Source of the DNA: Alphaproteobacteria bacterium
GTDB lineage: Bacteria > Pseudomonadota > Alphaproteobacteria > UBA6615
Assembly: GCA_038117045.1 (NCBI GenBank)
Contig: JAYOFE010000005.1
Span: 53,078-117,077, forward strand
Length of the DNA stretch: 64,000 nucleotides
Direction: 5' to 3'
Shown in pieces: positions 7,647 through 25,757 of the stretch. A program made the translations under genes and the position numbers. The first letter of the stretch is position 1. Each line of letters opens with the position of its first letter. Below the pieces are notes generated by a model. It saw nothing but the letters and a program-made list of their open reading frames with translations, searched no databases and had not been told where the DNA came from.

Positions 7647-7652
7647 GGCGCG

Positions 7653-8555
7653 CTACCTCCTCACCATCCCAAAACTGAATCCGCGCGCCAGGTGCTTGCG
7701 GATAATTAATCCCACCACAATCAGCGGGAGGGTAATTCCAACGGACAGCGCAGCTTGGCGTCCGTAGACACGTCCTTCTGTCGATCCCTGGTACTTGGAG
7801 AGTTCGACCGGCAGTGTGACGACCTGGGCCTTCGACAGCAGCAGTGCCAAAAGGTACTCGCTCCATGTCAGGATCAGAATGAACAGGAAGGTCGCCACGA
7901 GGCCTGATCTGACCAGGGGCAGTACGACCTCCCAGATCGTGCGCCAGCGGCTCGCGCCCAGAATTTCGGCGGCCTGTTCCATTTCCCGTGGAACTTCATC
8001 GATGAAGCTCTTCGACATCCAGACCGCGTAGGGCAGTGTCGTCAGGAAATAAAGGATCACCAGCCCAGTGACGGTGTCGAGCAGGCCGAGCGCGCTGTAC
8101 CAGATGGATATCGGTGCCACCAGGACGATAGGCGGCACCATTCGTAACATCAGCAACTGGAACATTCGCCCTTCGGACAGGATCTGGTACCGCGACACAC
8201 CGTAGGCGAGCACGGACCCGAACAGGACCGACAGAGTCGTTGCGATGAACGAGATCAGCGCACTGTTGCCAAGCGCGACCCATGGGCGCTGCAGGGACTG
8301 GGCGTAGGTCTTGATCTCACCGGTCTGCTCATCGACCGAATGGCCCTCAACGTCTGCCCAGACGGCAAGATAGTTCTGGAGGGTCGCATTCTCGGAGATA
8401 TAGACCGGCGGCCAGGCGAACCATTCGCGGTCCGGCTTGAACGAGGTCGAGACCATCCAGAAAATCGGAAACGCGACAATCAGGAGCCAGATCGTCAAAA
8501 GGAAGTAACGCATGGCCGCATAGGCGGTGCGCCGCTGGGACTTGGTCATCGCCAT
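7653..8555 (-). CDS. ABC transporter permease (MalG/UgpE-like)
   Basis: 300 aa with multiple transmembrane segments and an EAA-like loop. Tightly spaced in the operon. Confidence 0.85.
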   Translation of the reverse strand: MAMTKSQRRTAYAAMRYFLLTIWLLIVAFPIFWMVSTSFKPDREWFAWPPVYISENATLQNYLAVWADVEGHSVDEQTGEIKTYAQSLQRPWVALGNSALISFIATTLSVLFGSVLAYGVSRYQILSEGRMFQLLMLRMVPPIVLVAPISIWYSALGLLDTVTGLVILYFLTTLPYAVWMSKSFIDEVPREMEQAAEILGASRWRTIWEVVLPLVRSGLVATFLFILILTWSEYLLALLLSKAQVVTLPVELSKYQGSTEGRVYGRQAALSVGITLPLIVVGLIIRKHLARGFSFGMVRR

Positions 8556-8558
8556 GGC

Positions 8559-9566
8559 TCAGCTCTCCTCCGGACTGGCCTGGTACATCTCGTCCAAGCT
8601 CTTCTTCTCGCGCCGCAGCAGCCAGATCGCGCTCATGACAATGGCCACCATCATGAACAGCACGAGATAGGATAGGACGGCACCATAGGAGAGATCAAAG
8701 AACTGCCAGGCGTTGATGAAGATGTAGACCGGGATGGTCTCGGTCGCGGAGCCGGGACCGCCTTGAAGCAGGCCCCAGGTTTTCGGGAACTCGGCCATCG
8801 ATTCAAGGAAGCGCAGGATGAGCGCGAGCAGGATAACCGGGCGGAGCAGGGGAAGTTGGACCTCCCAGAAGATGCGCCACCTGCTGGCTCCGAGGATTTG
8901 CGCAGCTTCCTGCGGTTCCTTGGGAAGCGCGGCAAGGCCGGCCATCATGATGATGAAGCTGAAGGGGGTCCAGTTCCAGATTTCCAGCAGACCGATCGTC
9001 GTCAGGGCGGCTTGCTGGTTGTAAAGGAATTGCACCTCGGAGCGTGTGCCCGTAACCATGCCAATGATGTCGTTCAACGGGCCGTTCTGATAGAGGATCA
9101 TTTCGCCGGTATAGGCAATGACGATCGGCACCGTGAGCATCGGCAGGATGAAGAAGATGTAGTAGACGCCCTGACCGCGGAAGGGGCGATACATCAGTAG
9201 CGCCAGTCCAAATCCCAGCAGGAAGCATCCTGTCGTCACACCGGTCGAGAACAGCAGTGAACGAATGATTGCGTAGCCGAACTTGTCGTCGCTGAACGCA
9301 TCCGCCCACAGATCGAGGCCGACCCAGGTGGAGGCGCGGAAATAGGACAGAAACGACGGGTCGTCGCCGGCGTCGAATATCGAGAATGAGAAGAACGAGA
9401 AATAGCCCTGCAGCAGGAATGCAGGCAGCAGGATGAAGATCATCAGCGCCATCAGCGGGGTCAAAACGGTCCATTTAAACCGTTTCACCCCCTGCGCGCG
9501 TGTCGCTTCGCGAGAGTTGCCACGCCGGGGAGCCGGCTCGGCATTCATGGTCGTATCAGCGGTCAT
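8559..9566 (-). CDS. ABC transporter permease (MalF/UgpA-like)
   Basis: Transmembrane protein with EAA motif region EAAQILGASRWRIFWEV. Start chosen at MTADT (ATG 9566) after the intergenic hairpins. The ORF track extends to 9617, but that region contains hairpins. Confidence 0.75.
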   Translation of the reverse strand: MTADTTMNAEPAPRRGNSREATRAQGVKRFKWTVLTPLMALMIFILLPAFLLQGYFSFFSFSIFDAGDDPSFLSYFRASTWVGLDLWADAFSDDKFGYAIIRSLLFSTGVTTGCFLLGFGLALLMYRPFRGQGVYYIFFILPMLTVPIVIAYTGEMILYQNGPLNDIIGMVTGTRSEVQFLYNQQAALTTIGLLEIWNWTPFSFIIMMAGLAALPKEPQEAAQILGASRWRIFWEVQLPLLRPVILLALILRFLESMAEFPKTWGLLQGGPGSATETIPVYIFINAWQFFDLSYGAVLSYLVLFMMVAIVMSAIWLLRREKKSLDEMYQASPEES

Positions 9567-9647
9567 GACGTAAAAAAGCCTCGAGGACTCTGGGGCGCGT
9601 GAAGCGCCCCAGAGCATCTCATGAGGTTAGCAGGTCGAACCTGTCGC

Positions 9648-11114
9648 TTAGGACGGAACGTCCACGGACGGGAAGAGTGACTTGTAGGTCGCGAGCTCTT
9701 CCTTGAGACGTCGCTTGCCAATGCGGCGAATGGCGCGGCCCCAGGCCTCCGATGTGTCGGATGCGGCCTGCTTGGCGGTCTTGTCGCCGGCATACATCTC
9801 CGACAGGTTCCGCTTGAGTTCGGTCTCGAACTCCAGCAGGCCGGTCAGGAAGATCGGCGGGGTCACGATCTGCAGGTTCTTCTTGATCGCATCCATGCCG
9901 CCCGGCGTGTACACCTTTTCAGCGAGCGAACCCGGCTTGAAGTGATCCACGTGCCACGGGTCGTGGAACGTGTTCACCGGGTCACCCACGATGCGCGCAC
10001 TATTGGCACCCGTGCCCAGATACATGGCCATATATGCCATGGCTTCCTTGCGCGGGCTGTGGCGGTTTACGAGGATGCCCACATTGGGCGTCGAGACCGA
10101 ACGCTTGAGCAGCTTACCGCTCTTCTTGGAGCCCGGAACCGGACCGAACAACCACTTGCCGGCCGTCTTGGACTTCTTCGGGTTCTCGGCGAGAGCCGCG
10201 ACACCGTCCCAGTACTGGCAGGAATAGGCCTGGCCATTGATGATCCGCGGAATCATCTGCGGCGTGCCCCAACCGGCGGCTTCCGGATGCGAGACCTGCT
10301 TCACGTCCAGATAAGTCTGGAATGCGTATTCGCCGATCTCGTTGTCAATGTTCGGATCCATGTCGTCGGTGAACGGGAACCCGCCTGCGCTGTGGAGGTA
10401 CATGTACCACCAGGCGACGGACGAACCACGGTCACGCAGGTTGGCGCTGCCCCAGAGGTCCTGGTCCGGGCGGTGGAAGAACTTCATGATCTCAAGGTCT
10501 TCTTCCCAGGTCTCCGGCCAGGTCAGCTCGCGCCCGTGCTTGTCGGCAAAGGCCTTTCGCTCATCCGGGTTCTCGAACAGGTCTTTCCGGACGAACTGGA
10601 CGTGGACGTTGCCATCGGTCGTGATGCCGTAGGTCTTGCCCTTGTAGGTCAGGAACTTACCGAAATCGCCAACGGCATTGATCTTGAAGTCGGCCGCTGC
10701 CATGTAGTCGTCCAGCGGCTCCAGAAGGCCGGCAGAGGCCAGCGATGGGATCATGTTGGTATCGACGTGGAAGAAGTCGAACTCCGGCGACTTCGAAAGC
10801 GCTTCGGCCATGGCGCGCTGCGGAATGTCGAACGCGCTGATGTCCTGAAGCTTCGTGATGCTGATCCCGGTCAGGTCGCCGAACTCGTCCATGACGGGCT
10901 TGGCGCCGCTCGAGTACAGGCCCCACATGATGCCGGTCAGGTCCTGACCGTTCGGAACCGCCTTTTTGGCAGCGGCAACGATTCGATCCTCTTCCGCACC
11001 GGCGAAAGCTTGGCCCGCCATCATAGGCGTTGCGACGCCCATGGCAGCCGCAGCGGCGCCAGATTTCAAGGCCTCGCGGCGCGTGATTTCCGACAACTTG
11101 ATTGTCTTAAACAT
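9648..11114 (-). CDS. ABC transporter substrate-binding protein (family 1, extracellular solute-binding) with Tat signal
   Basis: Twin-arginine signal MFKTIKLSEITRREALKSGAAAAAMGVATPMMAGQAFA. About 490 aa, typical of sugar/oligosaccharide SBPs. Confidence 0.85.
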   Translation of the reverse strand: MFKTIKLSEITRREALKSGAAAAAMGVATPMMAGQAFAGAEEDRIVAAAKKAVPNGQDLTGIMWGLYSSGAKPVMDEFGDLTGISITKLQDISAFDIPQRAMAEALSKSPEFDFFHVDTNMIPSLASAGLLEPLDDYMAAADFKINAVGDFGKFLTYKGKTYGITTDGNVHVQFVRKDLFENPDERKAFADKHGRELTWPETWEEDLEIMKFFHRPDQDLWGSANLRDRGSSVAWWYMYLHSAGGFPFTDDMDPNIDNEIGEYAFQTYLDVKQVSHPEAAGWGTPQMIPRIINGQAYSCQYWDGVAALAENPKKSKTAGKWLFGPVPGSKKSGKLLKRSVSTPNVGILVNRHSPRKEAMAYMAMYLGTGANSARIVGDPVNTFHDPWHVDHFKPGSLAEKVYTPGGMDAIKKNLQIVTPPIFLTGLLEFETELKRNLSEMYAGDKTAKQAASDTSEAWGRAIRRIGKRRLKEELATYKSLFPSVDVPS

Positions 11115-11171
11115 TTCGTTCCTCCCTAATTCCTGCCTTTAGTTAGAGGGTAGACCCAGGCAAGGTTTTTT

Positions 11172-11195
11172 CGTCGTCTCAGGCATGTGACGACG
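11172..11195. promoter_or_regulatory. Inverted repeat in the divergent promoter region between the ABC operon and the XRE-cupin regulator
   Basis: CGTCGTC (11172-11178) ... GACGACG (11189-11195), 7-bp arms, 10-nt spacer. Confidence 0.25.
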
Positions 11196-11283
11196 CGGTG
11201 ACGAAACGTTACAACACTTTCCCTGGACGGGAAAAGTTTTCTTAGAGTGGAATCGCGGGGGGAAGGGGTATCGCGCTCGTTGT

Positions 11284-11958
11284 TTGAGCGATGAGGACGC
11301 AATGGACGACGTACGGACACAATCACGGCAGGGTCAGGGACTGACGCTTGGGGCGAAGGTGCGCGGCTTGCGCAAGTCCCAGGGACAGACCCTGGCAGCA
11401 GTCTCCAAGGTGACGGGGCTGTCGATTTCAGCCTTGTCCAAGATTGAAAACGATCAGGTTTCCCCGACATTTGCCAACCTCATGCGGCTGGCAGAAGGTT
11501 TGCGGATTCCGCTGAGCGAACTGGTCACGCTCGACGGAAGCGCGAATGGGGTGTCGGCGCGTATGAGCATCAGCCGCAAGCGTGATATAGTGTTCCGCTC
11601 CACGCCCAAGTACGACATGTATGCGCTTTGCGCCGATCTTCGGCACAAGCGCATGACGCCCCTCATCGAGAAGGTGCGTGCGGAAGATCCGAAGCGACTC
11701 GAAGGCATGATTTCGCATTCCGGTGAGGAGTTCTTCTATGTCCTGCGCGGGGCGATCGAGGTCCACACGGAACACTACAGCCCGGTGCGTCTCGAGCAGG
11801 GTGACAGCGCCTATCTCGATAGCTCGATGGCGCATACCCTTGTGGCGGTCGATGGTGACGAGGCGGACATCCTGATGGTCTGGCTGGGGCCCAACACCGG
11901 TGACGGTGACGGAGCCACTGCTGCGGAAGCCATTCTGAGCCAGACCTCTCGGGCCTGA
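11284..11958 (+). CDS. XRE-family HTH transcriptional regulator with C-terminal cupin domain
   Basis: HTH region QGQTLAAVSKVTGLSISALSKIEND and a C-terminal cupin-like beta-barrel region. The internal start MDDV is also possible. Confidence 0.75.
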   Translation: MSDEDAMDDVRTQSRQGQGLTLGAKVRGLRKSQGQTLAAVSKVTGLSISALSKIENDQVSPTFANLMRLAEGLRIPLSELVTLDGSANGVSARMSISRKRDIVFRSTPKYDMYALCADLRHKRMTPLIEKVRAEDPKRLEGMISHSGEEFFYVLRGAIEVHTEHYSPVRLEQGDSAYLDSSMAHTLVAVDGDEADILMVWLGPNTGDGDGATAAEAILSQTSRA

Positions 11959-12003: not shown

Positions 12004-12792
12004 ATGGAAGTACGTCAACTCGACATCGCCAACACCGATGTGATCCAGCTCGGGGAAGGGCCCGACCTTCTCTTGCTGCACACACTGCTGGCTGAACGTA
12101 CTGTCTTCGACAGGGTTCTGCCGGAACTGGCGGCCAAACACCGTCTGACCATCCCGAACCTGCCGGGCTATGGCAAGACGCCGCCGCTGGAAAATCGATC
12201 ACCGGCGGTGGAGGACTATGCGGACCGCATTGCCGGGATCATGGATGCCGCGGGCCTGCCGAACGACACCGATGTTCTGGGCAATGGCGCGGGCGGCTTT
12301 ATGTCGGTGGTGCTAGCGATCCGTCATGGCGGGCGTATCGGAAAGCTGATCCTTGCCGATACCGGCCCGGGATTCCCGGAAGCCGCCAAGAAGCCACTGC
12401 ACATTCTCGCCGACAAGGTCGAGGCGGAAGGCATGCAGTCCGTTCTCGATGCCGCGATGCTTCGCATGTTCCCGGAGCCCTATATCGCCGCGAACCCGGA
12501 AGTCATCGCGGAACGGAAGGCCGCGCTTGCCACGTGCAACCCGCAGGCCTTTGCGGCGACAGCGCGGGCACTTGCAAGCGTCGAGATGGCGGACCAGATC
12601 GGCGGCATCACCAACGAGACGATGGTGATGGTCGGTCTCGACGATGCGACCACGCCGCCTGCGTTGTCCTATGCCCTGCATGAGGGTATCCCGGGCGCGA
12701 AACTCGTTGAAATCGAGGATTGCGGCCACTGCCCGCAAATCCAGCAGCGGGACGTGTTCGTGAAGGAAGTTCTTGGCTTCCTCGAGGGCTAG
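12004..12792 (+). CDS. Alpha/beta hydrolase fold protein
   Basis: 262 aa, nucleophile-elbow GNGAGG, HTLLAE N-terminal motif. Confidence 0.75.
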   Translation: MEVRQLDIANTDVIQLGEGPDLLLLHTLLAERTVFDRVLPELAAKHRLTIPNLPGYGKTPPLENRSPAVEDYADRIAGIMDAAGLPNDTDVLGNGAGGFMSVVLAIRHGGRIGKLILADTGPGFPEAAKKPLHILADKVEAEGMQSVLDAAMLRMFPEPYIAANPEVIAERKAALATCNPQAFAATARALASVEMADQIGGITNETMVMVGLDDATTPPALSYALHEGIPGAKLVEIEDCGHCPQIQQRDVFVKEVLGFLEG

Positions 12793-13433
12793 TCTTTTCC
12801 CCGTTTCGTCGCGCCTGCCATGCGCAGGGCAAGGTCGCCGTACTGAACCGCGAGGTCCTCGACGGTCAGCTTGCCCTCGCTGCGGAACCAGTAAACCGCG
12901 AAATCGACGATACCCACGATGGCGAATGCCGTTGAGGTGATGTTCTCTATCGAGAAGTCGCCGGATTTCGTTCCGTCGGTCAGGATTCCACGAAGCCGGT
13001 CCACGAAGTCGCGTTGCAACGTGGTCAGCCGCTTGCGGCGCGCGGCCGGCAGGCCGTCGATCAACTTGTCGACATTGTAGAGCCCGGCATTGAGCATCGG
13101 CATGATGTCGGCCTTGCCCACGTCGTGGCGCACATGAGCTGCCACGAAGGCCCGCAGCCGTTCTTTCGGGGTGGGTCCGGCAGCCGATACGGCGTCGTCG
13201 GACAAATCGTTGAGGACGAGCATCGTGTTCTCGAGCGTTGCGAACAGGATCTCGTCCTTGGATGCGAAATGATAGTAGAGCGCCGGCGCGCTGATCCCGA
13301 TGGTCTTTGCAATGGCGTTCAGGCTGGTGCGCTCGTAGCCGCGCTGCGCGAACAGTCCCGCTGCCTCATTGACGATCAGTGCGCGCGTCTCGTCTGCGCT
13401 GCGGGTACGTCTGCTCGTGCTTGCCTGGGCCAT
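12789..13433 (-). CDS. TetR family transcriptional regulator
   Basis: N-terminal HTH TSLNAIAKTIGISAPALYYHFASKDEIL. 214 aa. Confidence 0.85.
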   Translation of the reverse strand: MAQASTSRRTRSADETRALIVNEAAGLFAQRGYERTSLNAIAKTIGISAPALYYHFASKDEILFATLENTMLVLNDLSDDAVSAAGPTPKERLRAFVAAHVRHDVGKADIMPMLNAGLYNVDKLIDGLPAARRKRLTTLQRDFVDRLRGILTDGTKSGDFSIENITSTAFAIVGIVDFAVYWFRSEGKLTVEDLAVQYGDLALRMAGATKRGKD

Positions 13434-13460: not shown

Positions 13461-13494
13461 TAATACTTAATGAACATTAATTAAATGATGTTCG
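13461..13494. promoter_or_regulatory. AT-rich palindromic region, candidate TetR operator / promoter of the hyu cluster
   Basis: TTAATG-AA-CATTAA, and GAACAT ... ATGTTC inverted repeats in TAATACTTAATGAACATTAATTAAATGATGTTCG. This AT-rich island sits in GC-rich DNA between TetR and hyuA. Confidence 0.35.
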
Positions 13495-13577: not shown

Positions 13578-15656
13578 ATGCGATTTGCTGTCGACACCGG
13601 AGGGACGTTCACCGACCTGATCGTCGAGGACGATGACAACGGCCTTCATATGTTCAAGGCCTCGACCACGCCGGACGACCCGATCCGTGGCGTGCTCGAC
13701 AGCCTGCAGGTGGCCGCCGAGGGGTTCGGCATGGAACTCGGGGACCTCCTCGCCAAGGGTGAACTCTTCATCCACGGCACGACCCACGCCATCAATGCCA
13801 TCGTCACCGGTAATACGGCGAAGACGGCCTTCCTGACGACTGAGGGCCACCGCGATATCCTCGTCTGGCGCGAGGGCGGTCGGATGGAGCCCTTCAACTT
13901 CACGGTCCCGTATCCAGAACCGTATATTCCGCGCGCCCTGTCCTATGAAGTCCCGGGACGCATCCTGGCCGACGCGTCGGAACTGCACCCGCTCAACGAG
14001 GGGCGGGTCACCGAGATTCTTGAGGATCTGAAGGAGAAGGGCGTCGAGGCGATCGCGGTCTGCCTGCTCTGGTCGATCATCAACCCGTCGCATGAAGACC
14101 GGGTGGGCGCGTTGATCGAACAGCACCTGCCGGGTGTACCCTACACGCTGTCGCACGTGCTCAATCCATCGCTACGCGAATACCGTCGTGCGTCTTCGGC
14201 GGCGATCGACGCCTCCCTGAAGCCGCAAATGAGTGCGTATATGCGCAACCTTACCGGGCGCCTGTCGGATGCCGGGTTTGACGGGCGTGTGCTGATCGTG
14301 ACTTCCCAGGGCGGGATGATGGACGCGGCGGATATCGCCGAGCAGCCGATCCACCTGATCAATTCCGGCCCGTCCATGGCGCCGGTCTCGGGCCGCTATT
14401 TTGCCCGTGAGGACGAGAACTCGGACAACGTGGTGATCGCGGACACCGGCGGCACGACCTATGACGTCAGCCTTGTCCGGCGCGGGCGTATCCCGTGGAC
14501 GCGAGAGACCTGGATCGGCCAGCCCTATCGCGGCCACATGACGGGATTCCCGTCGGTAGATGTAAAATCTATCGGCGCTGGTGGCGGCTCGATCGCCTGG
14601 GTCGACGACGGCGGCATGTTGCATGTCGGTCCGCAGAGCGCGGGTGCGGTGCCCGGTCCGGCGTGCTACGGGCAGGGCGGCGAGAAGCCGACCGTAACAG
14701 ATGCGTCGCTGGTGCTCGGTTATCTCGATCCCGAGTTCTTCCTCGGCGGCAGCATGTCGCTGGATGTCGCGGCATCGCGCGCGGCCATCGAGCGTGACGT
14801 GGCCGGCCCGATGGGCCTGAGCCTGGAAGACGCGGCGGCGGCCGTGATTTCCATCGCCACCGAGAACATGGTGCAGGCGATCATCGACATTACGGTCAAC
14901 CAGGGCATCGACCCGCGCGAGGCGGTGCTCATCGGCGGCGGCGGTGCGGCGGGCCTGAACTCGACCGCCATCGGGCGGCGTCTCGGCAGTGAGCGCGTGC
15001 TCATCCCCGAGGTCGGAGCGGCGCTGAGCGCGGCGGGCGCAATGATGTCCGACCTGCATTCCCAGTACACACGGACCTTTTTCGCCATGTCTGAAAACTT
15101 CGACGTGGAAGGCGTGAATGCAATCCTCGATGCGCTGGAGGCGAGCTGCAATGCATTCATCGACGGGCCGGGGCAGGGCTCCATCGACCAGACCATAGAG
15201 TTCTTCGCAGAGGCGCGTTATCCCGAACAGGTCTGGGAGATCGAGGTGCCCCTGGCGTCGCGGCGGTTCAACAGCGATGCGGATGTGCGCGCACTGGTCG
15301 CCGAATTTCACAAGACCCACGAGGACATCTTCGCCATCTCTGATCCGGAATCCGAGATCGAGGTGGTCGGCTGGACCGCGTCCGTGAAGTGCCGCTTGCG
15401 TGAAAGCGAGGCGGGCTCGCTGGCCGAACGCGAGCTGCAGACTGCGGTCGATGGGATCCGCAAGGTCTACTTCTCGGGCCACGGCTATGTCGACGCGACG
15501 GTGCGCCGGTTCGAGGCGATGAAGGCGGGTGAGGTGCTGGAGGGACCGGCAATCATCGAATCCCCGTTCACAACGGTGGTGATCGATCCGGGCGCGACGG
15601 CGGAGCGGCGCCCCTCCGGCAGCGTGTCCATCGTACCGGGCACGGCGACGGCTTAG
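13578..15656 (+). CDS. hyuA: Hydantoinase/oxoprolinase family protein, subunit A (HyuA-like)
   Basis: MRFAVDTGGTFTDLIVEDD N-terminus typical of HyuA/oxoprolinase N-terminal domains. GGGGAG RBS precedes the ATG at 13578. 692 aa. Confidence 0.85.
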   Translation: MRFAVDTGGTFTDLIVEDDDNGLHMFKASTTPDDPIRGVLDSLQVAAEGFGMELGDLLAKGELFIHGTTHAINAIVTGNTAKTAFLTTEGHRDILVWREGGRMEPFNFTVPYPEPYIPRALSYEVPGRILADASELHPLNEGRVTEILEDLKEKGVEAIAVCLLWSIINPSHEDRVGALIEQHLPGVPYTLSHVLNPSLREYRRASSAAIDASLKPQMSAYMRNLTGRLSDAGFDGRVLIVTSQGGMMDAADIAEQPIHLINSGPSMAPVSGRYFAREDENSDNVVIADTGGTTYDVSLVRRGRIPWTRETWIGQPYRGHMTGFPSVDVKSIGAGGGSIAWVDDGGMLHVGPQSAGAVPGPACYGQGGEKPTVTDASLVLGYLDPEFFLGGSMSLDVAASRAAIERDVAGPMGLSLEDAAAAVISIATENMVQAIIDITVNQGIDPREAVLIGGGGAAGLNSTAIGRRLGSERVLIPEVGAALSAAGAMMSDLHSQYTRTFFAMSENFDVEGVNAILDALEASCNAFIDGPGQGSIDQTIEFFAEARYPEQVWEIEVPLASRRFNSDADVRALVAEFHKTHEDIFAISDPESEIEVVGWTASVKCRLRESEAGSLAERELQTAVDGIRKVYFSGHGYVDATVRRFEAMKAGEVLEGPAIIESPFTTVVIDPGATAERRPSGSVSIVPGTATA

Positions 15657-15673
15657 CGGAAAGGAGAGCGGAG

Positions 15674-17440
15674 ATGGCAAGGCAAAAGATCGACGGCGTA
15701 CAGCTTGCCCTCCTGTCCAACCGGCTGGAGGGGATCTCGTCCAAGATGGGCAACACCCTTATGCGCACAGGGCGCTCGGGCGTTCTCAACATCGCGCGGG
15801 ACTTTTCCTGCTGCATCCTGACAGCGGACAACCAGCTCGCGGCGGTGGCCGAGAGCCTGCCGATCCATGTGCTGTCCGGTCCGGATATTATGGCCGCGAC
15901 CATGAAGTCGTATCATCCGGACCTGAAGCGCGGTGACGCGTTCCTGCACAACTCGCCCTATCACGGGTGCTCCCATGCGGCGGATCATACGATCCTCGTC
16001 CCGGTGATCGATGATGACGGCATCCACCGCTACACGGTGGCGGCGAAGGCGCACCAGGCGGACATCGGCAACTCGATCCCGACGACCTATCACGGCACCG
16101 CGCGCGATGTGTACGAGGAAGGCGCACTGATCTTCCCGGCCGTGAAGGTGCAGGAAGACTACGAATACAACATGGACATCGTGCGGATGTGCCGCCTGCG
16201 CATCCGTGTCCCGGACCAGTGGTGGGGTGACTTCCTGGCCATGATGGGCGCGGCCCGCATCGGCGAGCGCGAGCTTCTGGCGCTGGGCAAGGAGGTCGGC
16301 TGGGACACGCTGGAGGCCTTCAACGAGGACTGGTTCGCCTATTCCGAGGAGCGGATGATCGGCGCGATCAGGCAGCTTCCCGCGGGCACGGCGACGCGCA
16401 CCTCGACCCATGACGCCATTCCCGGCACGCCGGAAGACGGCATTCCCATCACCAGCACCGTCACCATCGACCCGGAAGGCGCGAAGGTGACCGTCGACCT
16501 GCGCGACAATATGGACGCGCAGCCCTGCGGGCTGAACCTGTCCGAAGCGTGCGCGCGTACGGCAGCCATGGTGGGCGTGTTCAATTCCATCGACCATACA
16601 GTGCCAAAGAACGCCGGCTCCTTCCGGCGTATCGACGTGCTTTTGCGCGAGAACTCGGTCTGCGGCATCCCGAAGCACCCGACGAGCTGCTCGGTGGCGA
16701 CGACAAACATTGCCGACCGTGTGTCCAACCCGACCCAGGCGGCCATGGCGGAGATCGCCGACGGTTACGGCCTTGCCGAGTGCGGGGCAATCATCCCGCC
16801 CGCCGTCGGCGTGGTCTCGGGCACGAACCCGGACAGCGGCGAGCCCTTCGTCAACCAGGTCTTCCTGGGCCTGACGGGCGGCGCGGGTGCACCCTATGCG
16901 GATTGCTGGCAGTCGATCTGCCATGTCGGCAATGGCGGGCTCTGCTACCAGGATTCCATCGAACTCGATGAGCTTCGCCAGCCGCTCTACATCAAGACCC
17001 GCGCCTTTGCGCCCGACACCGAGGGTGCCGGAAAGTTCTGCGGCGCGCGCTCGGCCTATACCGAATTCGGACCGCGCGTGGGCAACCTCGACGTCGCCTA
17101 TGTAAGCGACGGAGGCATCAACGGTCCCAAGGGGGTGCGCGGCGGGCTCGGTGGGGCCAATGCTGGCCAGTTCAAGATTACCCGCAACGGCGAGCACGAG
17201 GATCTGCCCAACTGCGCGGTGGTAAATCTTTTGGCGGGAGAAATGATAGGCTCGAAATCGTGCGGCGGTGGCGGGTACGGCAGCCCGCTCGACCGTGACC
17301 CCGAGAAGGTCGCTCACGACGTGCGCGAGGAATATGTCAGCGCCGCGCGCGCCGCCTCCGTCTACGGGGTGGTGGTTGATGGCGAAGGGCGGCTCGACCG
17401 CGCGGCGACCGACAAACTCCGGGCGGACATGATCGCCTGA
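15674..17440 (+). CDS. hyuB: Hydantoinase B/oxoprolinase family protein (HyuB-like), copy 1
   Basis: 588 aa; DGVQLALLSNRLEGISSKMGNTLMRTGRSGVLNIARDFSCCI is characteristic of the HyuB family. Confidence 0.85.
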   Translation: MARQKIDGVQLALLSNRLEGISSKMGNTLMRTGRSGVLNIARDFSCCILTADNQLAAVAESLPIHVLSGPDIMAATMKSYHPDLKRGDAFLHNSPYHGCSHAADHTILVPVIDDDGIHRYTVAAKAHQADIGNSIPTTYHGTARDVYEEGALIFPAVKVQEDYEYNMDIVRMCRLRIRVPDQWWGDFLAMMGAARIGERELLALGKEVGWDTLEAFNEDWFAYSEERMIGAIRQLPAGTATRTSTHDAIPGTPEDGIPITSTVTIDPEGAKVTVDLRDNMDAQPCGLNLSEACARTAAMVGVFNSIDHTVPKNAGSFRRIDVLLRENSVCGIPKHPTSCSVATTNIADRVSNPTQAAMAEIADGYGLAECGAIIPPAVGVVSGTNPDSGEPFVNQVFLGLTGGAGAPYADCWQSICHVGNGGLCYQDSIELDELRQPLYIKTRAFAPDTEGAGKFCGARSAYTEFGPRVGNLDVAYVSDGGINGPKGVRGGLGGANAGQFKITRNGEHEDLPNCAVVNLLAGEMIGSKSCGGGGYGSPLDRDPEKVAHDVREEYVSAARAASVYGVVVDGEGRLDRAATDKLRADMIA

Positions 17441-19224
17441 TGGCGGCGAACGGGACAGGACCGGTCGAGACAGGCACCGATGGTGTCCAGCTCGCGTTGC
17501 TCGCCAACCGGCTGGACGGCATCGTCCGTAAGATGGCCAACACCCTGCTGCGCACCGGTCGTTCGGGCGTTCTCAACACCGCGCGGGACTTTTCCTGCTG
17601 CATCGTCACCGGCGACCACCGGCTCCTGACGGCGACGGAAAGCCTGCCGATCCATGTGCTCTCCGGCCCGGACATGATGGCCGCGTCGATGGCGGAGTTT
17701 CACCCCGAACTGAAGCGGGGCGATGCCTTCCTGCACAACTCGCCCTATCACGGCTGTTCGCATCCGGCGGATCACACGATCCTAGTACCGGTCATGGACC
17801 GCGAGGGGCGCCATCGCTTCACGGTCGAGGCCAAGGCACACCAGGCCGATATCGGCAACTCGATCCCGACGACCTATCACGCGCGTGCCCGCGATGTGTA
17901 TGAGGAGGGGGCGCTGATCTTCCCTGCGGTGCGGGTACAGCGCGACTACGCGAATATCGAGGACATCGTTCGGATGTGCCGCCTGCGTATCCGCGTGCCG
18001 GACCAGTGGTGGGGCGACTACCTCGCCATGATAGGCGCGGCGCGCATCGGCGAGCGGGAACTGACGGCGCTTGGCGAGGATGTGGGCTGGGACGCACTGG
18101 ACGCCTTCGCGGACCGCTTCTTCGATTATTCCGAAGCACGCATGGAAGCGGCGCTCCGGTCGTTGCCGGCGGGTTCGGCGGGACACTCGAGCACCCATGA
18201 CCCGATCCCCGGCACGCCCGAAGAAGGGGTGAAAATCAACGTCAGCGTGACCGTCGATCCGGTCGCCGCGCGGGTGTCGGTGGATTTGCGCGACAATCCG
18301 GATGCGCTGCCCTGCGGGCTTAACCTGTCGGAGGCCTGCTCGCGCACGGCGGCGATGGTCGGCGTCTTCAACTCCATTGACCACACGGTGCCGAAGAATG
18401 CGGGCTCATTCCGCCGCATCGATGTGAAGTTGCGCGAGAATTGCGTCGTCGGTATCCCGAAACATCCGACGAGCTGTTCCGCCGCGACCACCAATGTCGC
18501 CGACCGTGTGTCCAACTCGGTTCAGGCCTCGATGGCGAAGATTTCAGAGCAGGTGGGTCTCGCCGAGTGCGGGGCGTCCAGCCCGCCCGCAGCGGCCGTG
18601 ATCTCGGGTACCAATCCCGAGACCGGCAAACCCTATGTGAACCAGATTTTCCTCGGCCGGACGAACGGCGCGGCCAGTGCGCACACCGATGCCTGGTGGA
18701 CGGTAGGGCATGTGGGCAATGCCGGGATGTGCTTCCTCGATTCCGTGGAACTCGACGAGTTGCGCCTGCCGATCTACGTCCATGCGCGCGGCTTCGTGCC
18801 CGACAGCGAGGGTGCGGGTCGTAATTGCGGCGCGCCGCAGGGCTTTGCGGTGTTTGGGCCGCGGGCGGGGACCATGTCCCTGATCTACAATTCAGACGGC
18901 TCAATCAACGGTCCGAAGGGCGTGCGCGGAGGCCTCGGTGCCGCGAACGCCGCCCAGCACAAACTGACGGCAAGTGGCGAGGAAGAAGAAGTTCCCCGCG
19001 TCGGCCAGGTCTTCCTGGAGCCGGGCGAACTGATGGTCTCGCGCTCCTGCGGAGGAGGCGGGTTCGGCCTCCCGGTGGAACGCGACCCTGCAAGGGTGGC
19101 CCGGCAGGTGGCTGAGGGGTTCCTGTCCGTGGAGCGCGCGCGCAAGCTGTACGCGGTCGCGGTCGATCCCGACGGGCAAGTGATTGCGGACGAGACCGCG
19201 CGGCTCAGGCAAGCGGCGGAGTAG
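17440..19224 (+). CDS. hyuB: Hydantoinase B/oxoprolinase family protein (HyuB-like), copy 2 (tandem paralog)
   Basis: 594 aa, collinear with copy 1 (DGVQLALLANRLDGIVRKMANTLLRTGRSGVLNTARDFSCCI...). The start abuts the copy-1 stop. Confidence 0.85.
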   Translation: MAANGTGPVETGTDGVQLALLANRLDGIVRKMANTLLRTGRSGVLNTARDFSCCIVTGDHRLLTATESLPIHVLSGPDMMAASMAEFHPELKRGDAFLHNSPYHGCSHPADHTILVPVMDREGRHRFTVEAKAHQADIGNSIPTTYHARARDVYEEGALIFPAVRVQRDYANIEDIVRMCRLRIRVPDQWWGDYLAMIGAARIGERELTALGEDVGWDALDAFADRFFDYSEARMEAALRSLPAGSAGHSSTHDPIPGTPEEGVKINVSVTVDPVAARVSVDLRDNPDALPCGLNLSEACSRTAAMVGVFNSIDHTVPKNAGSFRRIDVKLRENCVVGIPKHPTSCSAATTNVADRVSNSVQASMAKISEQVGLAECGASSPPAAAVISGTNPETGKPYVNQIFLGRTNGAASAHTDAWWTVGHVGNAGMCFLDSVELDELRLPIYVHARGFVPDSEGAGRNCGAPQGFAVFGPRAGTMSLIYNSDGSINGPKGVRGGLGAANAAQHKLTASGEEEEVPRVGQVFLEPGELMVSRSCGGGGFGLPVERDPARVARQVAEGFLSVERARKLYAVAVDPDGQVIADETARLRQAAE

Positions 19225-19228
19225 GGCG

Positions 19229-20380
19229 ATGGCGGACATTCCTGTCAGCGGCACATGCGATCTGAAGTTCGCGGCGGTGGAGGATGCGTTCCGCCGCAAC
19301 ATGAACGAAGGCGATCCGGTCTGCGGGGACGAACTGGGCGCCTGTGTATCCGTTGTGATCGATGGCGAGACCGTCGTGGACCTATGGGGCGGATACCGGG
19401 ACGCGGCGCGGACTCGGCCGTGGGAGCGCGACACCATCACCTGCATGATGTCGGTCTCAAAGTCCTGTGCGGCTATCGCACTGCTCACCCTGATCGACAG
19501 GGGGATCGTGAGCATGGAAGCCAAGGTCTCGCGCTACTGGCCGGGTTTTTCGGGCGATGGCAAGGAAGACATGAGCGTGCGCACGTTGATATCCCACCAG
19601 TCCGGTGTCATCTACGCGGATGCTGCTCCGGCCGCGTCCCTCTGGGATGGGCTGGCGGTCGAGGAGGCGCTCGAGGCCGCCACCCCTGAATGGGTGCCCG
19701 GCACCGGCGGCGCCTATCATTCCTTCACCTATGGGCCGCTCATCAATGCCCTGATCCGTCACGCAGACGGGCGTGACGTAGGCACGGTGTGGCGCGAGGA
19801 CGTGGCGGACCCCTTCGGGATCGACTTCCAGATCGGCCTCAACGATGAGGAAGCCACCCGGCGCGCGGAATTTGTGGAGACCCCGGGCACACCCTCACGC
19901 GACGGCATCAAGGGCGAGGCGGACTCACCGCTGACCCGCGCCTGGAACCCGCTGCCGAGGAGCGAAGACTTCAACTCGGACAACTGGGTCCACGGCCTAT
20001 TTGCCTCGGCCAACGGTCATGGCAACGCACGGGCCATCGCGCGCCTCTACGGCGGAATGGCAAACGAGGGGCTGATTGATGGCTGGCGGCTGCTGTCGGA
20101 AGGCCTGATCGCCGATGCAACCAGTGAGCACTGGGACGATCTCGATCGCATGACCAACCGACCTTTCCGGTTTGGCTGCGGATTCATGCTGTCCTGTCCA
20201 CCGTTTCCGTTCGGCGGATATCGGGACAATTTCGGCCACACAGGCATCGGCGGCGCCATCGGCTTCGGCGATCCGGAACGCCGGATCGGCTTCAGCTACT
20301 GCGGCAACCGGATGGCCCCGATCGCGGATACGGGCCCGTTCGCCGGGTCGCTGATCGAAGCCATGTACGCATCAGTCTAG
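19229..20380 (+). CDS. Serine hydrolase, beta-lactamase/esterase (class C-like) family
   Basis: S-x-x-K motif SVSKS. ATG at 19229 with GGAG RBS, 4 nt after the hyuB-2 stop. Confidence 0.75.
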   Translation: MADIPVSGTCDLKFAAVEDAFRRNMNEGDPVCGDELGACVSVVIDGETVVDLWGGYRDAARTRPWERDTITCMMSVSKSCAAIALLTLIDRGIVSMEAKVSRYWPGFSGDGKEDMSVRTLISHQSGVIYADAAPAASLWDGLAVEEALEAATPEWVPGTGGAYHSFTYGPLINALIRHADGRDVGTVWREDVADPFGIDFQIGLNDEEATRRAEFVETPGTPSRDGIKGEADSPLTRAWNPLPRSEDFNSDNWVHGLFASANGHGNARAIARLYGGMANEGLIDGWRLLSEGLIADATSEHWDDLDRMTNRPFRFGCGFMLSCPPFPFGGYRDNFGHTGIGGAIGFGDPERRIGFSYCGNRMAPIADTGPFAGSLIEAMYASV

Positions 20381-20389
20381 GGGAGAGTT

Positions 20390-21148
20390 ATGCGGTTCAA
20401 GGACAAAGTGGCGCTGGTCACGGGAGGCTCATCGGGGATCGGTGCGGAAGTTTGCGCGCGCTTCGCAGAGGAGGGCGCGAAGGTCGCCGTTGTGTCCGGC
20501 TCGTCGACAGAACGCGCGGCGGCGGTCGTGGAACGTTGTGGCAATGGCGCGCGCGGTTTTGCTTGTGATGTTTCTGACGTTACCCAGATCGACACGCTGG
20601 TCGGGAATGTGATTGGGGCTTTCGGGCAGATCGATATCCTGGTGAATGCGGCGGGCGTCTTTTACCCGACCCGCATCGGCGAGACCGACGAGGCGATGTA
20701 TGACCGCATGGCCGACATTAACCTCAAGGGTTGCTTCTTCATGTGCAACGCCGTCGCGCCGCACATGATCGCGGCGGGCAGCGGCAAGATCGTGAACCTC
20801 GGCTCGGGCGCAGGCGTCGCCGGACGCAGCAACTACATCGTCTATTCAGCGGTGAAAGCCGGGGTCATCAACATGACCCGTTCGTTTGCCGCCGCGCTGG
20901 CGCCCCACAACATTAACGTGAACTGCCTTGCACCCGGCAACACGGCGACCCCGATGAACGAGAACGTCCGCACGGAGCCCGAATACGCGGAGATCTACGA
21001 GACCATCAAGCAGAAGACCCTCAGCCCACGGCCGTTTGCGGACGCCTACGAGATGGCGGGTGGGGTGCTGTTCCTGTGTTCGCAGGACGCCAGCGCCGCG
21101 CACGGCGCGCTGCTGCTCATGGATGAGGGCCTGTCAGCCGGATACTGA
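20390..21148 (+). CDS. SDR family oxidoreductase
   Basis: TGGSSGIG Rossmann motif, YSAVK catalytic motif. Confidence 0.85.
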   Translation: MRFKDKVALVTGGSSGIGAEVCARFAEEGAKVAVVSGSSTERAAAVVERCGNGARGFACDVSDVTQIDTLVGNVIGAFGQIDILVNAAGVFYPTRIGETDEAMYDRMADINLKGCFFMCNAVAPHMIAAGSGKIVNLGSGAGVAGRSNYIVYSAVKAGVINMTRSFAAALAPHNINVNCLAPGNTATPMNENVRTEPEYAEIYETIKQKTLSPRPFADAYEMAGGVLFLCSQDASAAHGALLLMDEGLSAGY

Positions 21149-21183
21149 CCCAACACCCGAACGGGAAAACACGGAGAGACATC

Positions 21184-21957
21184 ATGCAACTCAGGAACAA
21201 GGTGGCGCTGATCACCGGCGGTTCGCAGGGCATCGGCGAGGAAATCGCCCGGCTGTTCGCATCCGAAGGCGCGACCTGCGCCGTCGTGGCGAGTGCGAAC
21301 GTCCGCAAGGCCAACAAGGTCGCCAAGGAGATCAAGCGCAAGTCGAAGGGCTACGCCGCCGACGTCACCAAGCCCGCCGAGGTGAATAAGCTCGTCGAGA
21401 AGGTGATGAAGGACTTCAAGAAGATCGACATCCTCGTGAATGCGGCCGGCGTGTTCTACCCGACACCTGCGGGCGAGACGAAAACCACGGACATGAACCG
21501 CATGGTCGACATCAACCTGAAGGGCAACTGGAACGTCACCAATGCCGTGGTGCCGCACATGAAGGCGCGCAAGCAGGGCAACATTATCAACCTGGCGTCG
21601 GTTGCCGGCGTGACGGCCATCCCGGCTTACCCGATCTACTGCGCAACCAAGGCGGGAATCATCATGATGACCCGGGCATTGGCCGTTGAACTCTCGCGCG
21701 ACGGCATCCATGTGAACTCGATCTCGCCGGGCAACACGGCGACGCCGATGAACGAGGACATCCGGACCGATCCCGCCCTGAAGCCGGTGCTGGATTTCAT
21801 GGAAATGCTGACCCCTTCGGGCCGGACCTATTCGGAGGCTGCGGATATCGCAAACACAGCGCTGTTCCTGGCTTCGCCGAAGACCGGCAAGGCGATCTAT
21901 GGCGCCAACTTCGTCATCGATGAGGGCTTTGCGGCCGGGCTGTTCGTCGCGAGTTGA
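21184..21957 (+). CDS. SDR family oxidoreductase
   Basis: TGGSQGIG, YCATK catalytic motif. Tandem with the previous SDR. Confidence 0.85.
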   Translation: MQLRNKVALITGGSQGIGEEIARLFASEGATCAVVASANVRKANKVAKEIKRKSKGYAADVTKPAEVNKLVEKVMKDFKKIDILVNAAGVFYPTPAGETKTTDMNRMVDINLKGNWNVTNAVVPHMKARKQGNIINLASVAGVTAIPAYPIYCATKAGIIMMTRALAVELSRDGIHVNSISPGNTATPMNEDIRTDPALKPVLDFMEMLTPSGRTYSEAADIANTALFLASPKTGKAIYGANFVIDEGFAAGLFVAS

Positions 21958-22008: not shown

Positions 22009-23187
22009 ATGGCGAAGGTCTCACAGGCGCTGAACATCGAGGATCTGCGGAAGATGGCGGGCCGGCGCCTGCCGTCTTTCCTGTTCGACTATGTCGAGCG
22101 GGGCCATGCTGATGGGGGCAGCGTGAACCGCAACGTCGCGGCCTTCGATAAGTACACGATGCTCTCGCGCGCGCTGGTTCAGGTGGTGCCGCCGAACACC
22201 GAACGTATGGTCTTCGGCAGGCGCTATGCCCTGCCGTTCGGGATTTCCGCCGTGGGCGGGCTGGGCATTTTCCGGCCCGGCGCCGACCGCTTTCTCGCCG
22301 AGGTCGCGCGGGAAGCCAACATCCCTTTCATGCTGTCGGGCGTATCCAACGAATCCATCGACACCGTCGCCCGGATCGCGCCCGAGCATGTCTGGTTCCA
22401 GCTCTATGCGTCGCGTGATTTTGAACTGACGAAGCGCATGATCAGTCAGGCGGCGGATGCCGGCTGTGACGTGCTGGTCGTGTCTGTCGACTACCCAATC
22501 CAGAACAAGAGCGAAGTGCCCCAGCGCTCGGGCGTGACGCCGATCGGCGGGATCAACTGGCAGAAGCTTCCGTCGATCTTCGGCGACCTCGCAATGCATC
22601 CGGCCTGGCTGGCGACGTTCCTGGCCAGTGGCGGCATGCCGAAGATGGAAAGCTGGATGCCCTATGCGCCGCAGGGCAGCTCGCCCAAGGACATAGCGAA
22701 GTATTTCGCCAGCGTCTGGCCGCCCAACCTGGTCTGGGACGACATGGAGCGCATCCGCGAGGTCTGGAAGGGCAAGCTGGTCCTCAAGGGACTGATGGAG
22801 CCCGCGGATATCGCGAAGGCCTATGCCGTCGGCGCGGATGGCGTGTCGCTGTCGAACCATGGCGGTAACAAGCTGAACATCGTTCCGGCCACCGTGGACT
22901 GCCTGGCGCCCGCACGCGCGGCCATTTCGCCTGAAAACAACCTGTTCCTCGACGGCGGCATGCGCCGGGGTTCGGACGTGGTGAAGGCTGTCGCGCTGGG
23001 GGCTGATTTCTGCTTCCTCGGCCGGGCCTTCCTCTACGGGGTCTCGGCGGGCGGCCGGGAAGGCGTGCGGCGGGCCGTGGAGATCCTGCGCGACGAGGTG
23101 TCCTACACCATGGCCATGCTCGGCTGTCCCGATGTCGATGGTATCGACCCGGCACTGCTGTTCCCGCCTACGCAGGGCCGCGCCTGA
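22009..23187 (+). CDS. FMN-dependent alpha-hydroxy acid dehydrogenase (LldD/glycolate oxidase family)
   Basis: 392 aa with FMN-dependent alpha-hydroxy acid dehydrogenase (TIM-barrel) family sequence; N-terminus LEDLRKMAGRRLPSFLFDYVERGHADGG. Confidence 0.85.
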   Translation: MAKVSQALNIEDLRKMAGRRLPSFLFDYVERGHADGGSVNRNVAAFDKYTMLSRALVQVVPPNTERMVFGRRYALPFGISAVGGLGIFRPGADRFLAEVAREANIPFMLSGVSNESIDTVARIAPEHVWFQLYASRDFELTKRMISQAADAGCDVLVVSVDYPIQNKSEVPQRSGVTPIGGINWQKLPSIFGDLAMHPAWLATFLASGGMPKMESWMPYAPQGSSPKDIAKYFASVWPPNLVWDDMERIREVWKGKLVLKGLMEPADIAKAYAVGADGVSLSNHGGNKLNIVPATVDCLAPARAAISPENNLFLDGGMRRGSDVVKAVALGADFCFLGRAFLYGVSAGGREGVRRAVEILRDEVSYTMAMLGCPDVDGIDPALLFPPTQGRA

Positions 23188-23193
23188 GCCGGG

Positions 23194-23943
23194 TCAGACC
23201 AGCTTCGAAATCACGATATAAAGGCCGAGAACGAGGAGCGCGACCAGCATGAGCTGTCGGAAGCGGTCCTCGGAAATCCGGTGGCGAAGCTTTTCGCCGA
23301 GCCAGTAGCCCAGAAGTGTCGGGATGGTGGCCGCGGTCGAGGCAATCGCGAGTTCCCGGGTCAGAAGTCCCTGTACGATAAAGGCGATGGCGATCACGCC
23401 CGAGCCGAGCAGGAACAGCAGGCCCATGGCCTGCACCAGCTGGTCGCGATTGAGCCGGAGGCACTGCATGTAGGGCACGCCCGGCACGGCATCGGAGCCT
23501 GTCATGCCGGCAAGCACGCCGTTGATGCTGCCGACCACGGGCGAAAGCCAGACTTCGTGGCGGCCGGGATGGGGCAGGCGCGGGGCCGCCAGCGCATATA
23601 GCGCATAGATGACCAGCACCGCGCCCAGAATGGCAGTGATCAGGCGCGGGTTCCCCGCGACGAGGATTTCGGTGCCGAACCAGATACCGATGCAGAACAT
23701 CACGAAGAACGGCCACAACCGGCCGAGTGTGTCGCGCTGGGGCGGGCCGCTGAAGGTCTGCCAAGCGTTTGAGGCAAGGCCCGGCACGATAATGACGGCA
23801 ATGGCCGAGGGCAGGGGCATGACCGTCGCAAGAAGCCCGAGCGCCACGATCTTCATGCCCAGCCCGATGGTACCTTTCACCAGGCCGCCAAGAACCATCG
23901 TCGCGAACGCAAAGACGATCTGAAACGTACTCAAGTCCAGCAT
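23194..23943 (-). CDS. TauE/SafE family sulfite-exporter-like permease
   Basis: Polytopic membrane protein of about 250 aa. N-terminus MLDLSTFQIVFAFATMVLGGLVKG is a typical TauE first TM. The longer MPADTS start would overlap the upstream SDR. Confidence 0.7.
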   Translation of the reverse strand: MLDLSTFQIVFAFATMVLGGLVKGTIGLGMKIVALGLLATVMPLPSAIAVIIVPGLASNAWQTFSGPPQRDTLGRLWPFFVMFCIGIWFGTEILVAGNPRLITAILGAVLVIYALYALAAPRLPHPGRHEVWLSPVVGSINGVLAGMTGSDAVPGVPYMQCLRLNRDQLVQAMGLLFLLGSGVIAIAFIVQGLLTRELAIASTAATIPTLLGYWLGEKLRHRISEDRFRQLMLVALLVLGLYIVISKLV

Positions 23944-23965
23944 CAGAGTGGCCGCTGCGTTCGCG

Positions 23966-24742
23966 CTAGATTTCCCACTCGACGTTGCCGTCCATGCCGA
24001 TGTTCTGGCCGGTGATGTGTCGGCCGGCATGCGACGCGAGGAAAACGGCGAGGTCGCCGACTTCCGTGGGGTCGATCCAGCATTTCAGCGAAATGAACTC
24101 CATGAACGCGGCCTCGCGTTCCTCGACGGAGATTCCCATCTCTTTCGCCTGGTTGGCGACGATGTTGCGTCCGCGCTCGTTGTCGATCAGGCCCGGCAGG
24201 ATGGCATTGCAGCGGATACCAAACGGGCCGTATTCGCGTGCCACGGTGTGGGTCAGGCCCAACACGCCGACCTTGGACGCTACATAGGGCGAGCGCATGG
24301 GCAGCGCCACCTTGGCCGAGGCTGTGGAGATGTTGACGATGCAGCCCGACTTCTGGGCCTTCATGTGCGGGGCAACGTTTTTGATGCAATAGAACATGCC
24401 GTTGAGGTTCACACCGATAGTGCGGTCCCAGTCCTCGTAGGAGATATCCTCCAGCGCGCCGCGCGGCCCGCCGATCCCGGCATTGTTCACGAGCACATCG
24501 ACGCCACCCATGAGTTCCACGGCATCCGTGACCATCTTCTCGACATCCGAGGGCTTGCCCACATCGGCCAGCGTGCCAGACACGCGGTCATCGCTGTGGA
24601 TCACCTCGTTGAGCATGTCCTGCTGCACATCGCAGGTGTGCACGAATGCGCCGGCTGCCGCGAAGCGTTCCACGATGGCGCGCCCGATCCCGGATCCGCC
24701 GGCTGTGACGATCACGCGCGTACCGCTTGCAAGATTTGACAT
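23966..24742 (-). CDS. SDR family oxidoreductase
   Basis: TAGGSGIG, YVASK motifs. 258 aa. Confidence 0.85.
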   Translation of the reverse strand: MSNLASGTRVIVTAGGSGIGRAIVERFAAAGAFVHTCDVQQDMLNEVIHSDDRVSGTLADVGKPSDVEKMVTDAVELMGGVDVLVNNAGIGGPRGALEDISYEDWDRTIGVNLNGMFYCIKNVAPHMKAQKSGCIVNISTASAKVALPMRSPYVASKVGVLGLTHTVAREYGPFGIRCNAILPGLIDNERGRNIVANQAKEMGISVEEREAAFMEFISLKCWIDPTEVGDLAVFLASHAGRHITGQNIGMDGNVEWEI

Positions 24743-24776
24743 TAATAAATCCCCACAAGTATCTGAATTTCATTTT

Positions 24777-25712: not shown

Positions 25713-25757
25713 GACCGGACTATAAGGCGAAGTTATCGCTTTGCGCAGTCGTGATAA

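Follow-up and report, generated by a model that had tools for sequence, protein, structure and literature searches.

A hydantoinase-type locus in Alphaproteobacteria with one ATP-binding subunit gene and two conserved, diverged paralogs of the catalytic subunit

A gene cluster of the hydantoinase/oxoprolinase type was analyzed in a stretch of 64,000 nucleotides (nt), hereafter the window, from an Alphaproteobacteria bacterium (GenBank assembly GCA_038117045.1, contig JAYOFE010000005.1, positions 53,078 to 117,077 of the forward strand). It consists of three genes on the plus strand: hyuA (13578-15656), encoding an ATP-binding (ASKHA) subunit of 692 amino acids (aa) with the Pfam domains Hydant_A_N, Hydantoinase_A, and Hydant_A_C; hyuB1 (15674-17440), encoding a metal-site catalytic subunit of 588 aa; and hyuB2 (17440-19224), encoding a paralogous catalytic subunit of 594 aa, the latter two with the Pfam domain Hydantoinase_B. 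A ribosome-binding site (GGGGAG) lies just 5' of the hyuA ATG, and AGGAGA precedes the start of hyuB1. Intergenic spacing is 17 nt between A and B1, -1 nt between B1 and B2 (the hyuB1 stop and the hyuB2 ATG share one base, TGATG), and 4 nt between B2 and the next gene, so that no room is left for the gene of a gamma subunit. One A-like gene and exactly two B-like genes are present within the window. An earlier note, made from the sequence alone, had described one hyuA followed by two full-length hyuB paralogs at these positions, and the open reading frames (ORFs), the Pfam matches, and the 68% ungapped identity of the two B proteins bear this out.

The ATP motifs of HyuA are intact (D6TGGTFTD13, D289TGGT293, and G356AVPGP361, i.e., PHOSPHATE 1, PHOSPHATE 2, and ADENOSINE). 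Both B proteins match the Pfam Hydantoinase_B profile over its entire length (1-519 of 519) and align with each other over 577 aa with 0 gaps. CapB, the B subunit of the caprolactamase CapAB, depends on four metal ligands, Asp41, His99, Asp102, and His124 (PMC8453981). Mapped from CapB through a HMMER alignment, these ligands correspond to D43, H101, D104, and H127 in B1 and to D50, H108, D111, and H134 in B2. For comparison with other genomes, a one-genome-per-species scan turned up 556 relatives, from which the best 79 loci were kept (loci carry L numbers below), and gene order was mapped across them by tblastn. All four ligands are kept in 11/11 B1 orthologs, 8/9 B2 orthologs, and 77/77 other close members of the subfamily, the exception among the B2 orthologs being that of L063, apparently a MAG (metagenome-assembled genome) sequence of poor quality, which has Arg for an Asp ligand and odd residues at conserved positions. 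The ratios of nonsynonymous to synonymous substitution rates (dN/dS) against orthologs were 0.04-0.13 for A, 0.03-0.15 for B1, and 0.05-0.21 for B2, with dS near saturation. Both B copies are under purifying selection, and B2 gathers 1.2-2 times more replacements than B1. Since B2 has its ligands and a full-length fold and is under purifying selection, the possibility that it is inactive was rejected; the earlier note had named inactivating changes or truncation as grounds against its proposal, and neither copy shows them. No gene-conversion tract was detected between B1 and B2 (identical stretches reach at most 31 nt, with a third-position identity of 0.56), so gene conversion as the cause of their likeness was also rejected. 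Two irregular loci were seen among the relatives: the B1 gene of L063 (8189-11755) is matched in part only, and the hyuA homolog of L039 (7927-9984) contains an in-frame stop. These oddities are probably assembly errors in metagenome-assembled genomes (MAGs) or pseudogenes.

The arrangement of the three genes is conserved. The order alpha/beta-hydrolase gene (abH), TetR-family regulator gene, A, B1, B2, beta-lactamase-fold hydrolase gene (Blac), and two short-chain dehydrogenase/reductase genes (SDR1 and SDR2), with TetR and Blac variable, was observed in L001-L004, L007, L029, and L063, and partly in L006, whose A gene is cut off by the contig end. These loci all belong to Alphaproteobacteria or Rhodospirillaceae MAGs, the nearest being an alphaproteobacterial MAG (L001) with 96% identity in B1; the loci of L005 and L068 end at the contig edge. 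Three further metagenome B2-type proteins occur in the same arrangement (L081-L084). Overall, A-B1-B2 recurs in at least eight other species-level genomes and three metagenome contigs. The window shares the overlap of the B1 stop and the B2 start (TGATG or ATGA) with eight other loci, which suggests that B1 and B2 are co-expressed and translationally coupled.

Neighbor-joining trees with 200 bootstraps were used to date the duplication. The B1 orthologs were monophyletic (96% bootstrap), the B2 orthologs and the single B of L030 formed one clade (100%), and the B1 clade and the B2/L030 clade were jointly monophyletic (85-90%). The A tree had the topology (L030,((L008,L009),core)) with 99% support. 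Taken together, the B and A topologies imply that the B1/B2 duplication is older than the whole clade. A recent or strain-specific duplication, the other objection foreseen in the earlier note, was therefore rejected on the basis of these trees and the synteny in other genomes. Two loci have a single paralog beside A. L009 shows the order A-B1-TetR-Blac-SDR-SDR, with a B1-type gene only and a TetR gene filling the place of B2, and L030 shows A-B2-SDR, with a B2-type gene only, directly downstream of A. The A subunits of both fall within the A clade of the window (99%). Judging from these gene orders, each B type can apparently stand alone with A.

Duplication of B has occurred repeatedly in this subfamily: tandem B genes were found in 15/79 loci and derive from at least four independent duplications, and no tandem A genes were found among the 79 loci. 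Besides the A-B1-B2 group, tandem B genes are present in L008, L015, L056/L057 (A-B-B), L047/L051 (A-B-B-B), and a second locus of L033, and the independence of these events is backed by bootstrap support. Some pairs are younger, with 88% identity between the two proximal copies of L047 and 77% between the two copies of L008. In L047 (4363-11740) and L051 (4359-11740), which belong to Rhizobiaceae/Alphaproteobacteria MAGs, A is followed by three tandem B genes spaced by 0-5 nt; this arrangement arose from two successive duplications separate from that of the window. The cultured Enhydrobacter aerosaccus ATCC 27094 (L033) has an independent A-B-B locus of a more distant subfamily on the minus strand (16999-21737), whose tandem B genes share 49-51% identity with the B genes of the window and 77% with each other, and also a single-B locus (10001-11737) belonging to the subfamily of the window.

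A redundant duplicate, kept for dosage or robustness and doing the same job with more catalytic subunit, is another account of the pair. The identical metal ligands, the agreement at 10/15 predicted pocket positions (see below), and the existence of very similar recent copies (L047 and L008) are in line with it, and the frequency of tandem B in the subfamily could reflect repeated selection for dosage. However, redundant copies are normally lost or homogenized. The pair studied here has been held at ~68% identity across many species in separate, well-supported ortholog clades with no gene-conversion signal; paralog-specific residues, including a predicted pocket residue, have been fixed, and the faster evolution of B2 relative to B1 is consistent. 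We therefore regard redundancy as improbable.

B genes were also found away from any A. Orphan HyuB genes of this subfamily with intact ligands are present in L037, L050, L053, L055, L060, and L073 (B at approximately 10001-11750; 4788-6524 in L060), with no HyuA-like gene within ~10 kb on each side (~4.8 kb upstream in L060). The orphan B of L053 is flanked by genes for a molybdenum hydroxylase large subunit and an OYE/Pyr_redox flavoprotein, and that of L050 by a Meth_synt_2-like gene and a luciferase-like monooxygenase gene. Since these orphans show that B can be genetically uncoupled from A, B2 might be a passenger in the locus, pairing with a HyuA encoded elsewhere or acting alone without ATP. 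This is highly improbable for several reasons: the B2 start overlaps the B1 stop codon, with B2 placed between B1 and the following operon gene at all syntenic loci, the window has a single A gene, B1 and B2 share 82% identity in the N-terminal helix corresponding to the A-contacting one of CapAB, and the B2-type gene of L030 lies directly downstream of an A gene of the same clade.

We also compared the locus with the characterized systems of this superfamily. Hyd-type enzymes are encoded by two genes, hydAB, without a gamma subunit (PMC5214803). The window shows the A domains and ATP motifs of this type, full-length B proteins with the Asp/His/Asp/His ligands, subunit sizes of ~690 and ~570-590 aa, and no gamma subunit, but has three genes, A-B1-B2, an arrangement kept in at least 11 other loci. 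The locus is otherwise Hyd-like, and the duplicated catalytic subunit is what is new; the departure from the known pairing of one A with one B, pointed out in the earlier note, is thus real. The closest solved structure of both subunits is CapAB of Pseudomonas jessenii (PDB 6YRA; 445 bits for A and 163 bits for B), which resembles the proteins of the window in subunit sizes (~690 and ~580 aa), the absence of a gamma subunit, the ATP motifs, and the metal site. In enzymes of this kind, substrate activation takes place in the ATP-binding A subunit, a tunnel runs to the metal site of B, and the complexes are built on a B-B dimer with A on the outside (PMC8453981, PMC5214803). By analogy, the A-B-B-A architecture of CapAB presumably applies here too. 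In contrast to the window, CapAB has one B gene and the gene order B-A (PMC8453981). Moreover, the scores against the CapAB equivalog models NF050156/NF050157 (A, 579.8; B1, 246.6; B2, 236.2) are far below the cut-off of 1000 bits, the CapB vicinal disulfide C410-C411, which is conserved in Pseudomonas lactamases, is replaced by G419-N420 in B1 and G426-N427 in B2, and several pocket residues of CapB are unlike those of B1 and B2. Because of the low equivalog scores, the absence of the disulfide, and the changed pocket, the substrate is almost certainly not caprolactam.

The next structural matches after 6YRA are the fused N-methylhydantoinase 7HK5 and then acetophenone carboxylase (Apc). HyuAB of Pseudomonas sp. 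NS671, the N-methylhydantoinase of P. putida 77, IaaCE, OplAB, and the fused 5-oxoprolinases/7HK5 share the same domains and subunit sizes with the window, but their sequence similarity to it is remote (7HK5, 118 bits for the B part). The two-gene hydantoinases and lactamases have the order A then B, as in the Hyd branch (PMC5214803), and the same expected chemistry, ATP-driven opening of a cyclic amide. The enzymes of this group are described as two genes yielding (alpha beta)2 complexes or as a single fused chain, and none has been described with a second B. Apc is the only characterized member in which one type of core subunit exists as two diverged paralogs with divided labor (PMC5214803). 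In its structure (PDB 5L9W), the alpha and gamma chains match HyuA and the delta chain matches HyuB; hence, Apc has duplicated the ATP-binding subunit, whereas the locus of the window has duplicated the metal-site subunit, and the view that its composition is the reverse of Apc rather than an Apc look-alike holds. Further features of Apc that are not seen here are its gamma and epsilon subunits, the greater length of its beta (684 aa), and the gene order apcABCD(E), and the scores against the NCBIfam Apc models are far under their cut-offs. Acetone carboxylase (Acx, AcxABC; PDB 5M45 and 5SVB) belongs to the same superfamily and likewise has a B-B dimer core and a tunnel connecting the ATP site to the metal site. 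It needs, however, a gamma gene downstream of its two core genes (acxAB in the naming of Weidenweber) and a HyuB homolog of 720-776 aa with long terminal arms, while the window has no gamma gene and matches 5M45_A/5SVB_A over a C-terminal segment of just 60 residues (E ~2e-5). A carboxylase of the Acx/Apc kind, which the adjacent SDR genes had suggested, was rejected on account of the missing gamma subunit and the short type of B. In our literature searches on hydantoinase A/B paralogs and operons, no description of a two-B system (hyuA-hyuB-hyuB') was found.

To see where B1 and B2 differ, pocket positions were mapped via a ~28%-identity alignment to the CapAB structure, which has a resolution of 4.0 Å. 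The 15 positions aligned with the pocket lining of CapB read ILIYTAIVVGHGNCV in B1 and TLIYTASAIGHGNCN in B2, and 10/15 are the same. The predicted pocket of B1 resembles that of most single-copy relatives, which suggests that B1 keeps the ancestral type and that the predicted pocket of B2, with the derived residues T47, S380, A385, and N484, is derived and more polar. The clearest change is at position 477 (B1 numbering; aligned with CapB Phe468), which is Val in B1, in 11/11 B1 orthologs, and in 70/77 other subfamily members, and Asn in 9/9 B2 orthologs and L030; other pocket differences from B1 to B2 are I40 to T/M and I373 to S. Outside the pocket, fixed differences are found, among others, at positions 22 and 26, which lie in the N-terminal helix (the A-contacting helix of CapAB), and as N166/M167 (B1) versus I173/E174 (B2) in the segment homologous to the CapB-CapB interface. 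The latter segment also bears a nearly fixed charge reversal, E161 (B1) versus R168 (B2). L009 and L030 each have the pocket and interface residues typical of their own paralog clade. The identity between B1 and B2 is 82% in the N-terminal helix, 83% in the B-B segment, and 50-55% in the barrel and C-terminal domains.

Such interface changes raise the question of a dedicated asymmetric heterotetramer, A-B1-B2-A, in which a B1-B2 heterodimer forms the core and both B types are required. The two catalytic chambers would then be non-equivalent, or one of them would be catalytic and the other structural or regulatory; Apc, with its alpha/alpha' split, would be the equivalent case for the A subunit. 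A pair of B proteins would fit directly into the core of CapAB, a B-B dimer flanked on either outer side by an A subunit (PMC8453981). The stop/start coupling of B1 and B2 in the window and eight other loci, the fixed 166/167 differences and the E161/R168 reversal in the interface-homologous segment, and a paralog divergence that, once normalized to orthologs, is highest in the A-contacting N-terminal helix and the B-B segment also favor it. On the other hand, L009 and L030 carry the clade-typical residues at 161, 166, and 167 and yet have a single B beside A, and Glu or Arg at 161 as well as the N-type and I-type 166/167 pairs also occur in single-copy relatives. The A-B-B-B loci L047 and L051 are at odds with a simple heterodimer, the metal site is complete in both copies, and the enrichment of fixed sites at the interface segments (4/13 versus ~1.9 expected; binomial p ~0.11) is suggestive and not significant. 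On balance, we consider an obligatory heterotetramer unlikely, although it is the strongest of the rival readings.

The reading that we prefer, and to which we give an even chance of being right, is that one ATP-dependent HyuA may serve two catalytic HyuB isoforms with different specificities on the A-B-B-A plan. On the caprolactamase model, A would use ATP to activate the substrate, the probable step being phosphorylation of a cyclic amide or carbonyl compound in its iminol or enol form. The activated intermediate would then pass through a tunnel to the metal site of B, where the ring would be opened. The complexes would be of the A-B-B-A type around a B-B dimer core, homotypic or heterotypic; given the 83% identity of B1 and B2 in the segment homologous to the CapB-CapB interface, mixed A-B1-B2-A tetramers may form beside homotypic ones. 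The two B copies would most likely serve to broaden the substrate range or to divide it, for instance between a pair of related substrates, a pair of stereoisomers, or two consecutive steps. Regarding the two mechanisms offered in the earlier note, the sequence thus leans towards two specificities sharing one ATPase subunit, given the fixed change in the predicted pocket of B2 and the loci with B1 or B2 only, and the heteromeric A-B-B' enzyme is the less likely of the two.

Several observations weigh against the two-specificity reading. Single pocket assignments may be off, most of all in the glycine-rich barrel that holds position 477, and no more than 13 positions differ in a strictly fixed manner between the two clades, so that the functional difference could be small. 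Compared with an overall ratio of 1.6, the divergence normalized to orthologs peaks at the N-terminal helix (ratio 3.3) and the B-B segment (ratio 2.3) rather than in the barrel, which fits specialization in assembly at least as well as specialization for substrates. Furthermore, L009 and L030 are known only as stretches of 21.7 kb, and the 'missing' paralog could sit elsewhere in the genome. The sequence evidence does not cleanly separate different substrates from specialized assembly.

A broader version, put forward tentatively and somewhat unlikely in our view, is that HyuA could be a shared activating module acting on interchangeable HyuB proteins, the stable form here being an asymmetric A-B1-B2-A with two different chambers. 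If true, the shared-module reading would explain the repeated multiplication of B (A-B-B, A-B-B-B, and orphans) with no duplication of A observed here, and the asymmetric complex would be the mirror image of the division of labor in Apc.

The hydantoinase/ketone-carboxylase family is mechanistically unusual in that the ATP step and the metal chemistry take place in separate subunits, with a tunnel of ~40 Å carrying the intermediate between them, and its hydrolysis of stable lactams and carboxylation of ketones are of interest in biocatalysis. The present locus offers enzymologists of this family a clean experimental system and a natural test of whether B sets the specificity and whether one A is able to serve several B. 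The annotation rule of two genes, hydAB, is incomplete, as two or three B genes are present at about one locus in five of the subfamily. Catabolic operons often contain tandem paralogs of catalytic subunits, and for this reason the locus is not a conceptual surprise.

With regard to the neighborhood, the genes listed in the earlier note (TetR, serine hydrolase, two SDRs, FMN-dependent dehydrogenase, and TauE permease) and the AT-rich palindrome are all present. Directly upstream of hyuA, and kept in syntenic loci, is abH (12004-12792, plus strand; assigned by Pfam, NCBIfam, and synteny), which is PcaD-like but under the equivalog cut-off. The TetR-family regulator gene (12789-13433, minus strand; Pfam TetR_N and TetR_C_24) is divergent from hyuA and lies between abH and hyuA only in the window and L002. 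The tetR-hyuA intergenic region contains a 22-bp AT-rich inverted repeat, GAACATTAATT/AAATGATGTTC (13472-13493), a candidate operator. Downstream, the Blac gene (19229-20380, plus strand) encodes a beta-lactamase-fold serine hydrolase of 383 aa with an S-V-S-K motif and starts 4 nt past the hyuB2 stop, most likely at ATG 19229 rather than at TTG 19184 of the ORF; it is absent from L001 and L002, the two closest relatives. It is followed on the plus strand by SDR1 (20390-21148) and SDR2 (21184-21957), which are 46% identical, form a second tandem paralog pair in the operon, and are both kept in syntenic loci, and by a gene of the FMN-dependent alpha-hydroxy-acid dehydrogenase family (FMN_dh; 22009-23187), which among the syntenic loci is limited to the window, L083, and L084; these three genes were assigned by Pfam and synteny. 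A convergent gene for a TauE/SafE-family permease (23194-24030, minus strand) is kept in most syntenic loci. Blac, FMN_dh, and TetR vary among the syntenic loci and are not part of the core.

In L081-L084, synteny extends further, from an ABC transporter through a luciferase-like gene (window positions 6567-11958 and 23966-28066). The elements kept beyond hyu are a CUT1-type ABC transporter (SBP_bac_1, two permeases, and a MalK-like ATPase), an XRE-cupin regulator, a minus-strand SDR gene, two tandem LysR regulators, and a luciferase-like monooxygenase. This wide synteny may reflect function or simply how closely the genomes are related.

No equivalog-level NCBIfam match that would name a substrate was found among the neighbor genes. 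Their predicted families, esterase/lactonase-type hydrolases and two SDRs, point in general terms to a pathway that degrades a hydroxylated or esterified cyclic compound in several steps. An SDR gene adjoining A-B (A-B-SDR or SDR-B-A) recurs over much of the subfamily. On a plasmid of Cupriavidus pinatubonensis (CP080769.1; L080, 3173-10318), a 70%-identical single A-B pair is followed by a gene for a hexapeptide-repeat protein and is divergent from two SDR genes and a gene for a beta-keto acid cleavage enzyme (BKACE), a neighborhood that may hint at a pathway via a beta-keto acid.

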